Below, piece after piece: positions 40,373 to 42,061 of a stretch of DNA of 64,000 bases. Position numbers and translations under genes: made by a program. The DNA comes from Candidatus Enterousia sp. (GTDB lineage Bacteria; Pseudomonadota; Alphaproteobacteria; Rs-D84), in the NCBI GenBank assembly GCA_045613785.1, contig JAZLBQ010000001.1, positions 2,571 through 66,570 on the forward strand, given 5' to 3'. Below the pieces are notes generated by a model. That model ran no database searches and had not been told where the DNA came from. It saw only the letters and a list, made by a program, of their open reading frames with translations. Each line of letters starts with the position of its first letter. Position 1 is the first letter of the stretch.

Positions 40373-40401
40373 AAATAACCGCCATAATGGCGGTTATTTT
40401 T
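40371..40401. terminator. bidirectional terminator
   Basis: AAAAATAACCGCCA-TAA-TGGCGGTTATTTTT between convergent genes. Confidence 0.85.
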
Positions 40402-41332
40402 ATCGTGTATTTGTAGGAAATGCTGATTCTATATAATCAATTTTCTGCATTTGTTCACGAATGAATGCAACCTTGGCAGCATTATTGTCGATGCTTTTTT
40501 GACTTGACGGATTCATGCGTAGATCATCAGATGCCTTGATTATACGACGCAGAACAGTAATCAATAGGCGGTGTTTCATGATGTTGCGTAGGTTCGGATT
40601 ACGTGGCCCTGGCATAGAATACATTGCTGGATTATGCAGGCGTGTATATGCTTCGTAAACAGGTGTCCAGATGTCCAGTTCAATCTGCAGCGGTGCAAAT
40701 ATATCACGATAGATGAAGTTATATTTCGCTTCGGCAAAGTCAATAAATGATAGCGTGCTGGTCAAAGGATCATATAAGACATTGCCAGAATTTAAATCAC
40801 CATGCGACCATGCTAGGCGTGTTTCATATTCAAATGTTCCAATTGCGTCACGGATTTTGCCCAGTTTTTGGGTTTCTTCAACCGTAAACCAGTTGTTCAT
40901 TTTGTTGTTTACAAAATTATCAAGACGTTTAAATTTTAAGTCTTGAGAAATTTTGTGTGAAACAATATCGCCAATCGGACGTGATTCGTTCATATCAACC
41001 AAAAATGATGCAATGCCATCGATGATTTCATAACGCTGGCGACGTGAAAGTTGTTTATATAAATCCGCAGTCAGGTGAAACCCAGGGGCACGTTCTTCCA
41101 GTAATTGGAATTCGTCGTCCTTGATATACAACATTTGTGGAATGTTGTAGCGTGGATTTCCAATGTCATGAATTCTATCCATAGTTTCTTTGGTTTTGTG
41201 TTGTTTTTCTAGCCAGGCTTGACGGGCTTCATCCCCAGATGTTGGCAGTGGACGCTTCATAACAAAACCAGGGCCGAAATCGGCGATATATGTTTCACGA
41301 CCATGGATAAGATTGTTTAGTTCTTCTGACAT
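40400..41332 (-). CDS. APH/choline-kinase-like phosphotransferase family protein
   Basis: Catalytic loop SHGDLNSGNVLY plus IDFAEA (DFG-equivalent) and an N-terminal VMKRP lysine. The start lies 3 nt after the Fic-like stop. Confidence 0.75.
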   Translation of the reverse strand: MSEELNNLIHGRETYIADFGPGFVMKRPLPTSGDEARQAWLEKQHKTKETMDRIHDIGNPRYNIPQMLYIKDDEFQLLEERAPGFHLTADLYKQLSRRQRYEIIDGIASFLVDMNESRPIGDIVSHKISQDLKFKRLDNFVNNKMNNWFTVEETQKLGKIRDAIGTFEYETRLAWSHGDLNSGNVLYDPLTSTLSFIDFAEAKYNFIYRDIFAPLQIELDIWTPVYEAYTRLHNPAMYSMPGPRNPNLRNIMKHRLLITVLRRIIKASDDLRMNPSSQKSIDNNAAKVAFIREQMQKIDYIESAFPTNTR

Positions 41333-41335
41333 TTT

Positions 41336-42061
41336 TTATATCGTTTTTGATTTTGTTAACAATTTTATTATATCTTCTTGGGTTCGCAGCATACAGGATT
41401 GCATATATGTGTAGTATGCACGTTTGTCGCCACTGGCATATTTTGCAATGGCTTCTTTGTATTTTTGTTTGTCTGCACGACGATTGAATACAATCGGACG
41501 ATAGCCACCTCTTATCAATACCCAGTTCATAATCAAGCGAGCCGTCCGTTTATTAAAATCATCAAATGGTTGCAATGCAATCAATTCATAATGAATCTTG
41601 AACGCACGGTGCAAAATGTCGTCTTTGCTGTTTTTGTAGTTGTATATAATGTTGTTGATGCTTGATTGGATATATGCTGGATCTGGTGCGTGCATGCGTT
41701 GACCATTGATTGTTATCTCAATGATTTTGTTCGTGCTGCGATAGCGTCCACCATCAATATGTGTGTTTGAAGACAGTATGCTGTGAATGTCAAGCAGGGC
41801 TTTTTCGTCAATGTCTTGGGACAGATTGTCTAAAATATAGTCATATGCCAGTCCCAGGTTTCGCATACAGTTGAAATCTAGGTATGGTTGTTGTTCCTTG
41901 TTTGGGACAAAGAACAAGGTGCGTGGTTCTGTATATGATATTTCATGACGCAGCCAGTTTACATTATTTAGACGTTTTACTGTTTCTGTGCCAGATAACA
42001 TATATGTTATAATTTCACGGTTATATTCGATTCTATTCTTTAATTTTGGTGTTCTGGTCAT
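41336..42061 (-). CDS. Fic/Doc (Fido) domain protein with degenerate active-site motif
   Basis: The core HYELIALQPFDDFNKRTARLIMNWVLIRGGYRPIVF aligns to HPFx[DE]GNGRxxR. His is replaced by Gln and Gly by Phe, and it has a Doc-like NKR. Confidence 0.7.
   Translation of the reverse strand: MTRTPKLKNRIEYNREIITYMLSGTETVKRLNNVNWLRHEISYTEPRTLFFVPNKEQQPYLDFNCMRNLGLAYDYILDNLSQDIDEKALLDIHSILSSNTHIDGGRYRSTNKIIEITINGQRMHAPDPAYIQSSINNIIYNYKNSKDDILHRAFKIHYELIALQPFDDFNKRTARLIMNWVLIRGGYRPIVFNRRADKQKYKEAIAKYASGDKRAYYTYMQSCMLRTQEDIIKLLTKSKTI

Follow-up and report, generated by a model that had tools for sequence, protein, structure and literature searches.

A selected Fic-fold protein with glutamine at the catalytic histidine position resides beside ctpA in Candidatus Enterousia and related Rs-D84 bacteria

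The gene considered here encodes a 241-residue Fic-fold protein with a non-canonical active-site loop, and it lies, together with the gene for a small-molecule-type kinase, between the genes for an EnvC-like M23 protein and the processing protease CtpA in Candidatus Enterousia sp. The stretch of DNA that we analysed, hereafter the window, is 64,000 nucleotides (nt) long (contig JAZLBQ010000001.1 of GenBank assembly GCA_045613785.1, positions 2,571 to 66,570 of the forward strand). Taking the evidence together, we favour, with a probability of roughly 0.55, an account in which this is an inherited and selected core Fic protein with a remodelled phosphate- or nucleotide-binding loop and a non-canonical chemistry, accompanied by a kinase that is facultative. 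The gene and the two parts of the protein on which the argument turns are located in the window as follows:

41336 to 42061, minus strand: Fic-fold protein of 241 residues, Q..NKR subclass (Pfam, FICD alignments, AlphaFold2 and Foldseek, family conservation)
41537 to 41572, minus strand: Fic active-site loop QPFDDFNKRTAR, residues 164-175 (translation)
41690 to 41749, minus strand: Fic flap, a beta-hairpin, residues ~105-124 (AlphaFold2 strands, family indels)

The protein matches Pfam Fic (PF02661) over residues 84-182 at 57.8 bits, against a cut-off of 24 (E 2e-15), and alignment to human FICD, both by phmmer and by profile, places Q164 opposite the catalytic His (LQPFDDFNKRTARL versus IHPFIDGNGRTSRL). 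F169 likewise stands for the first Gly of the loop and K171 for the second, while D168, N170, R172 and R175 are kept; the canonical AMP-transferase motif HxFx[DE]GNGRxxR is accordingly absent, with Q, F and K at its H, G and G positions. A first-pass annotation of the window, made from its letters and ORF translations, had recognised a Fido core with Gln for His, Phe for the first Gly and a Doc-like NKR, and had raised the concern that the motif might be shifted and a catalytic His hidden elsewhere. The core and its substitutions stand, and the concern can be put aside: both kinds of FICD alignment rule out a shift and offer no alternative His. An AlphaFold2 model of the protein (predicted local distance difference test score 88.4, predicted template modelling score 0.87) contains flap strands at 113-118 and 121-124, and in Foldseek it matches FICD/HYPE at E 3e-11 (query TM-score, TMq, up to 0.81) as well as the class II proteins BT_2513, CdFic and SoFic, TMq for this group of matches being 0.77-0.81. 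FICD/HYPE and these class II AMP-transferases are also the best matches in sequence (profile E 2e-19), and they have in common with the window protein the order of helices, the beta-hairpin flap, the F, D, N and R..R of the motif and an upstream G-x-[FY]-R. In contrast to them, the family of the window protein has Gln for His, Phe or Tyr for the first Gly and Lys for the second, and the window protein carries neither [ST]xxxE[GN] nor tetratricopeptide repeat (TPR) or other accessory domains. We conclude that this Fic protein is derived from class II, FICD-like Fic proteins.

The inhibitory motif [ST]xxxE[GN] was looked for in the sequence of the window protein and not found. In one MAFFT alignment the family shows a 12-residue gap (NWLRHEISY----TEPRTLF) where its canonical relatives read SNxxEGNxLTYGETKALL, and the family appears, from this comparison, to have lost the auto-inhibitory (alpha-inh) segment by deletion. 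The invariant E45 was considered as a possible inhibitory Glu and rejected, since in one alignment it falls opposite the Glu of the downstream 'xET'.

The variant loop is the best-conserved part of the protein. The motif was found in 114 of the 120 best homologs, with Gln (QPFx[D]x NKR) in 111 of these and HPFDD[FY]NKR in 3, and among 81 genomic open reading frames (the window's own plus those of 80 species-level loci) it reads QPF..NKR in 77, QAF..NKR in 1 and HPF..NKR in 3, the frame being full-length in every one of the 81 genomes. A 36-member alignment shows no variation at P165, F166, D168, N170, K171, R172 or R175, and has Q164 in at least 90% of its sequences; residues 161-180 form the most conserved block, with a mean column identity of 0.86-0.88, in a family whose overall identity falls to ~45%. 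An exhaustive profile search over 1.84 billion representatives, with clusters at 50% identity, returned 40 clusters at E<=1e-30, all of them Q[PA]Fx[DN]xNKR, below which the score drops sharply to canonical HPFxDGNGR proteins. The loop consensus of the family, Q-P-F-x-D-[FY]-N-K-R-x-x-R, is nearly invariant. The codons of His (CAY) and Gln (CAR) are one third-position change apart, and because the step between them is so short we infer that the persistence of Gln reflects selection. With L014, the closest genome, as the reference, the ratio of nonsynonymous to synonymous substitution rates (omega) comes to 0.085 for the Fic gene, 0.044 for the kinase gene and ~0.048 for the neighbouring M23, ctpA and tyrS genes; the Fic gene is under purifying selection. 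With the variant motif so conserved and omega so low, the word 'degenerate', which the first-pass annotation had attached to this protein, does not describe it. The same observations bear on the least likely of the explanations that we weighed, an inert relic, that is, a pseudo-enzyme kept for a structural or positional reason such as a promoter region in common with ctpA. The loss of the catalytic His and the deletion of the flap in some lineages are what one would cite for it; against it stand the intact frames in 81 of 81 genomes, the omega value, an active-site loop better conserved than the rest of the protein, and the retention of the gene in genomes of ~850 genes.

The members of the family that carry His (L064, L066, L068 and L011, and also P0104, P0109 and P0117) have Leu (MNL), as in canonical Fic proteins, at the near-invariant Trp of ..MNW.., and Q164 and W180 seem, from the alignments, to co-vary.

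The position of the gene was surveyed in one genome per species, which gave 80 loci with flanks to +-10 kb, all of them belonging to uncultured Alphaproteobacteria of the gut or rumen that carry the label Ca. Enterousia or 'uncultured Rickettsiales/Alphaproteobacteria'. The flanking genes and the intergenic elements of the window are these:

39299 to 40372, plus strand: coiled-coil and M23 (EnvC-like) protein, flank (Pfam Peptidase_M23, 61.3 bits)
42220 to 43638, plus strand: C-terminal processing protease CtpA (PDZ and S41 domains), flank (TIGR00225, Pfam S41)
42062 to 42219, no strand: divergent intergenic region of 158 nt between the Fic gene and ctpA (map of open reading frames)
42098 to 42126, minus strand: sigma-70-like promoter of the Fic(-kinase) transcript, TTGACA-17 nt-TATATT (11/12 consensus match)
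40369 to 40403, no strand: bidirectional terminator-like hairpin (16-pair stem, 5 G-C pairs, T-run)

CtpA scores 357.7 bits against TIGR00225 'prc' (cut-off 218.6) and 203 bits against Pfam S41, and the M23 flank scores 44 bits against the NCBIfam EnvC model, which is under the cut-off. Upstream of the Fic gene and pointing away from it, ctpA was found in 78 of the 80 loci, and in the remaining 2 the contigs are too short to tell; the distance between the two genes is 137-325 nt in 75 loci and ~1.06 kb in 3. Two very divergent relatives, P0271 (155 bits) and P0287 (95 bits, QPFGDNNKR), have the order ctpA <- -> Fic <- M23 <- tyrS with no kinase gene, and L007 is arranged in the same way, with Fic in the ctpA-M23 slot and no kinase. 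The promoter is equally constant: a perfect TTGACA(AA) -35 element and a TATAxT -10 element, which in the window lie at 42126-42121 and 42103-42098, are found on the Fic strand in all 75 of the 75 intergenic regions examined. The G+C content of the Fic-kinase pair (0.38-0.42) is that of its flanks, no mobility genes were seen adjoining the pair, no paralogs of the Fic protein were found within the window, and an exact-sequence look-up of the window's Fic protein returned no record. A recent insertion or island is ruled out by the synteny across the 80 species loci and the native composition. The Fic-kinase pair belongs to the core chromosome of Ca. Enterousia and its relatives, is specific to this lineage and is inherited vertically; the Fic gene is the ancient resident of the ctpA/EnvC-like M23 slot, and may be an ancient insertion relative to other Alphaproteobacteria. 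Members of the alphaproteobacterial order Rs-D84 have genomes of 0.75-1.0 Mb, lack the tricarboxylic acid cycle and respiration, and are thought to depend on other cells (PMC12306168); the Fic gene has been retained in such genomes of ~850 genes. As for the first-pass annotation, its description of the layout was accurate, from the opposite-strand unit of two genes 3 nt apart between the EnvC-like M23 gene and ctpA to the bidirectional terminator (the 16-pair hairpin) and the 158-nt divergent promoter region (the 11/12 promoter). Its view of the pair as inserted was not, in that the envC-ctpA synteny survey put the Fic gene at the same position in 78 of 80 species, and in distant relatives besides.

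Within this fixed position the Fic protein has evolved unevenly. At 80-85% identity of CtpA, Fic averages 55% (range 38-86%), and in one pair from a single CtpA clade, L068 and L080, CtpA is 95% and M23 93% identical, and Fic 51%. The DNA of L088, L090 and L069 can be aligned, at ~77%, along ctpA and beyond Fic codon ~150, whereas codons 1-150 are unalignable. The Fic types differ chiefly in the flap, whose hairpin is shortened in type 4 and, in type 2, is deleted with a 7-residue insertion upstream. In Fic enzymes the flap docks the target (PMC5651007), and its variability here therefore suggests either that target recognition has changed repeatedly or that it does not use the flap. The discordance between Fic and its neighbours would reflect allele exchange (replacement) or episodic acceleration; recent recombination was considered as its cause and could not be demonstrated, since dS, the synonymous divergence, is saturated (1.4-2.5) in the informative comparisons.

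Rapid, discordant change of this kind, with distinct flap types inside one CtpA clade (L068 and L080), might be expected of a conflict element, in which Fic would be a toxin, defence protein or effector, with the kinase possibly as its modulator, recently acquired as a mobile insertion. The host is also a probable symbiont or parasite, and in defence and phage libraries the Fic protein does draw matches, all of them generic Fic-domain ones (PADLOC candidate system PDC-S04 at 68.7 bits, and SoFic). Nonetheless, we consider this explanation very unlikely. A position that is constant across 78 of 80 species and the distant relatives, native composition, the lack of adjoining mobility genes, a conserved promoter of constitutive type and an omega of 0.085 all speak for residence rather than recent arrival, and the accessories of such an element are missing as well: no signal peptide or secretion domain was found in the Fic protein, the alpha-inh motif is absent, no small antitoxin gene adjoins it (upstream is the 158-nt promoter region, which holds no open reading frame, and downstream is the gene for the 310-residue kinase), and searches of PADLOC and PHROG gave no match for the kinase. 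The earlier statement that this is neither a FicTA nor a Phd-Doc arrangement is borne out by the same lack of space for an antitoxin gene and of an alpha-inh motif. The protein is also without the catalytic His that all known Fic toxins need.

Among 133 full-length representatives, positions 1 and 8 of the motif vary together almost without exception, being H..G in 82, Q..K in 41, Q..G in 1 and H..K in 0. Two distant Q..K proteins, P0370, in which the alpha-inh motif is still present, and P0306, have nearest neighbours that are all H..G, which suggests, from sequence, that the Q+K state arose more than once. Another distant Q..NKR protein, P0362, was dismissed as an informative relative, its context (accC and a RimK-like ATP-grasp protein) being unrelated. 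The lysine recalls Doc, and the N-K-R-T-A loop of phage P1 Doc is common to the window protein. The Doc model TIGR01550 scores 25.7 bits over the NKR region, below its cut-off of 38.65, and set against the Doc motif HxFx[DN][AG]NKR the window protein has the NKR, but Gln at the His and Phe at the [AG]. Doc has a catalytic His, A or G before the N, a length of ~125 residues and Phd as antitoxin partner, none of which applies to the window Fic, whereas the second Arg and the flap are present in the window Fic and missing from Doc. To our knowledge, no Fic or Doc enzyme has been characterised that works without the motif histidine. The Lys of Doc is associated with an ATP in inverted orientation and with the transfer of a phosphoryl group (Castro-Roa et al. 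2013, as given in PMC4454073).

The closest precedent in the literature for the motif is the 'D2' clade of Khater and Mohanty (2015; PMC4454073), a set of 45 Doc-like proteins that share Qx[FY]x[DE][GV]NKR; the clade was described in silico only and was argued to be possibly not dead. Judged by that published motif description, on which our comparison is based, D2 and the present family both replace His by Gln and carry ..NKR, the F and D of the window's loop also fit the D2 motif, and both groups consist of single-domain bacterial proteins; D2, however, was assigned to the Doc subfamily, and its position 6 is G or V, whereas in the present family this position is F, Y or C, the second Arg is retained and the resemblance is closer to the FICD type than to Doc. 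Our literature search turned up no experiments on Gln-type Fic proteins. An altered motif need not rob a Fic fold of its function, as is seen with Bartonella BepC, which acts by binding, and C. fetus Fic2 (PMC7842960, PMC5651007). These two keep the motif His, which Fic2 needs, and are effectors or toxins, in contrast to the chromosomal core gene described here.

In the account that we favour, the Fic protein would bind a Mg-phosphate or nucleotide ligand through D168, N170-K171-R172 and R175, a proposal drawn from the conservation of these residues. The canonical His general base would not be available to it, and the Doc-type Lys, together with a bulky aromatic in the anion hole, would probably impose a Doc-like inverted or phosphate-only pose on the ligand. 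The protein would then probably carry out a non-AMPylating reaction, or ligand-dependent binding, on a conserved cytoplasmic target, constitutively and free of auto-inhibition, while the kinase would probably have a small molecule as its substrate, in a process related to that of Fic but separable from it, and, in the window, would be translated by coupling to the Fic gene. A bolder version, which we put forward as a speculation and think unlikely to prove correct, is that Q..NKR is an active catalytic state of the Fic fold without a general base, one that uses an anionic acceptor (phosphate or carboxylate) or a Gln-positioned water for hydrolysis, in an indispensable cytoplasmic step tied to the envelope or division (ctpA/envC) in reduced-genome symbionts. 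The independent recurrence of Gln with Lys in Fic lineages unrelated to one another would then mark a new Fic reaction class.

The kinase is described by three entries:

40400 to 41332, minus strand: APH/choline-kinase-fold phosphotransferase of 310 residues, catalytic motifs intact (Pfam APH, motif translation)
40781 to 40804, minus strand: kinase catalytic loop HGDLNSGN, H177-N184 (translation)
40736 to 40744, minus strand: kinase Mg-binding IDF (D198), followed by the choline-kinase-like FIYRDIF (translation)

It matches Pfam APH (PF01636) at 36.5 bits (cut-off 23.2), has the bilobal fold of the small-molecule kinase type, and keeps K26 (which we take from the alignment to be the beta3 Lys), H177-x-D179-x4-N184 and D198 invariant across 32 family members. 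By its catalytic motifs, then, the protein is predicted to be an intact enzyme of the APH/choline-kinase small-molecule type, as the first-pass annotation had proposed from HGDLNSGN and IDF. No substrate-specific NCBIfam model scores above its cut-off on it (the APH(2'') models reach 15-16.5 bits against cut-offs of 475-625), its identity to APH(2''), macrolide phosphotransferases, choline kinases and related small-molecule kinases is only 13-17%, and an N-terminal HGRETY segment and the C-terminal helices are specific to its family. The spacing from the Fic gene is 3 nt (TAA-AAA-ATG), and the hairpin at 40369-40403, with an A-run on one side and a T-run on the other, lies between the convergent stop codons of the M23 and kinase genes.

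How closely the two genes belong together is best judged from their distribution. In 53 of the 80 loci the kinase gene follows Fic directly and in the same orientation (gap ~0-40 nt, up to 143); in 12 it is convergent, and in the other 15 it is missing from the 2.7-10 kb available at the locus. One of the 53, L018, has a kinase pseudogene in which residues 1-71, with an in-frame stop, are fused to 239-305 and the catalytic core is deleted, next to an intact Fic gene; the kinase is complete in the sister L017 and missing from L019, L020, L025, L027, L028 and L049. In metagenomes, a scan centred on the kinase placed it in the ctpA/M23 neighbourhood every time; at least 8 metagenomic loci contain it without Fic, in the order M23 -> kinase -> ctpA or M23 <- -> kinase -> ctpA, and their gaps of 49-116 nt are too short to accommodate a Fic gene. 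The deepest relatives have Fic only, and some lineages the kinase only. The two genes are linked by position, but each occurs at the locus without the other, and L018 has kept Fic beside a kinase pseudogene; there is thus no requirement in cis of either gene for its neighbour. The kinase is facultative: it joined the Fic operon in most lineages, and co-transcription is predicted in most species.

These observations weigh on the idea of an obligate two-protein module, in which the Gln-Fic would be a catalytically dead regulator or substrate adaptor of the kinase, or its substrate. Such a module would account for the short gap and common orientation found in 53 of the 80 species, and in the window with a gap of 3 nt, for the correlation between the pairwise identities of Fic and kinase (r = 0.61), and for the lack of a Shine-Dalgarno-like sequence before the kinase start in the window, which suggests translational coupling. 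At the same time, no kinase gene accompanies Fic at the locus in 15 of the 80 species or in the deepest relatives, no Fic gene accompanies the kinase in the M23-ctpA interval of at least 8 metagenomic loci, the genes of the 12 convergent species are not co-transcribed, and L018 combines a kinase pseudogene with an intact Fic gene. Identities to the window are discordant too, L012 having 86% for Fic and 67% for the kinase, and L088 47% for Fic and 80% for the kinase (CtpA 85%, TyrRS 87%), and a dead scaffold would not be expected to hold all of its phosphate- and metal-binding residues invariant. We regard an obligate module as unlikely. The first-pass annotation had offered two readings of the pair, and the one in which a pseudo-Fic serves as partner of the kinase is weakened by the solitary genes and the L018 pseudogene, although the co-orientation in 53 of 80 species still speaks for it; a Fic variant with altered chemistry is now, on sequence grounds, the better of the two.

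A different way to connect the two proteins is a two-step activation of a small molecule, in which the kinase would make a phospho-intermediate and Fic would transfer a nucleotidyl or phosphoryl group onto its anionic phosphate, with no need of a base, for example in the salvage of envelope precursors after the manner of AmgK-MurU. The kinase has a small-molecule fold, with NahK, glucosamine kinase and maltokinase among its matches, the locus lies among cell-envelope genes, Gln for the base and tolerated flap deletions fit a non-protein acceptor, and the reduced host genome depends on scavenged metabolites. Nonetheless, Fic is older than the kinase at this site and each persists alone, a match to a specific sugar-kinase family is absent in NCBIfam and Pfam, and the NKR or Doc-type loop goes with phosphoryl transfer to protein rather than transfer of a nucleoside monophosphate (NMP). 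We also know of no Fic protein that uses a small-molecule acceptor, and on balance we think this pathway quite improbable.

Returning to the account of a selected core Fic protein with a remodelled loop and a facultative kinase, several points weigh against it. The ligand-binding part of that account is inferred only from the conserved phosphate- and metal-binding residues; the deletion of alpha-inh, similarly, is read from a single MAFFT alignment. Three family members carry His (HPFDDYNKR), and some members may on that account be conventional enzymes. The link to the kinase may also be stronger than we allow, in that the tight spacing in 53 of 80 loci suggests selection for co-expression, and loci without the kinase could hold it elsewhere in the genome, given that +-10 kb was covered.

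A Fic protein that lacks the catalytic His and carries a Doc-type Lys, and that purifying selection has maintained as a core gene in one copy, with a consensus promoter, among the ~850 genes of its host, is hard to square with a dead enzyme. The compact 241-residue family is well suited to finding out the function of the Fic fold in its Q..NKR state, a question that dates from 2015, and the gene marks a lineage of uncultured, apparently partner-dependent gut bacteria, in which it may be functionally linked to the ctpA/envC envelope locus. If Fic is in truth a ligand-binding scaffold only, it is a well-documented pseudo-enzyme and little more. The Fic superfamily, the APH fold and the Q..NKR motif type (in silico, 2015) were already known; what appears to be undescribed so far is a class II-derived family without alpha-inh, fixed beside ctpA in a reduced-genome order, with recurrent Q/K covariation and a facultative kinase.

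Further observations concern the locus and its surroundings. The -35 element of the Fic promoter (TTGACA, minus strand) and a candidate -35 of ctpA (TTGTCA, plus strand) overlap on the near-palindrome TTTGTCAA at 42120-42126, and the divergent Fic and ctpA promoters may compete for or share the binding of RNA polymerase. Many species (L012-L091) also have, ~50-70 nt before the start of ctpA and separate from the Fic promoter, a motif resembling AAAAATCGTGTTGAAT (in the window GAAAATTTCGGGTTGAATGG, at ~42150-42169 on the plus strand), which may be a regulatory or leader element of ctpA. One assembly, MAG63, has two Fic-kinase loci of different Fic type, L013 (CAJGDN010000001.1) and L076 (CAJGDN010000066.1), 85% and 47% identical to the window, which could be a second copy or the product of a mixed-strain bin. 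In five loci (L002 at 7723-11505, L003 at 7587-11088, L004 at 7688-11549, L039 and L059) 4-5 kb separate the kinase and M23 genes; these inserts hold 1-3 large open reading frames (450-980 residues) with no Pfam or faint PKD matches, and mark a hot spot for variable genes that has no counterpart in the window. Convergent with ctpA, at 43666-44766 on the minus strand, the window encodes a CcrM-type N6-adenine DNA methyltransferase with a C-terminal RAMA domain, which was not found near the locus in relatives apart from a single weak match of 26% in L036. At 36952-38013 on the plus strand, between rplI and tyrS, lies an open reading frame for a radical-SAM-like protein of 353 residues with weak Radical_SAM and viperin-like matches. 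It was detected in L014 and L069 only among the 80 related loci, it is 60% identical in L014, the closest genome, whose neighbour genes are at 96-97%, and it looks like a fast-evolving or variable gene.

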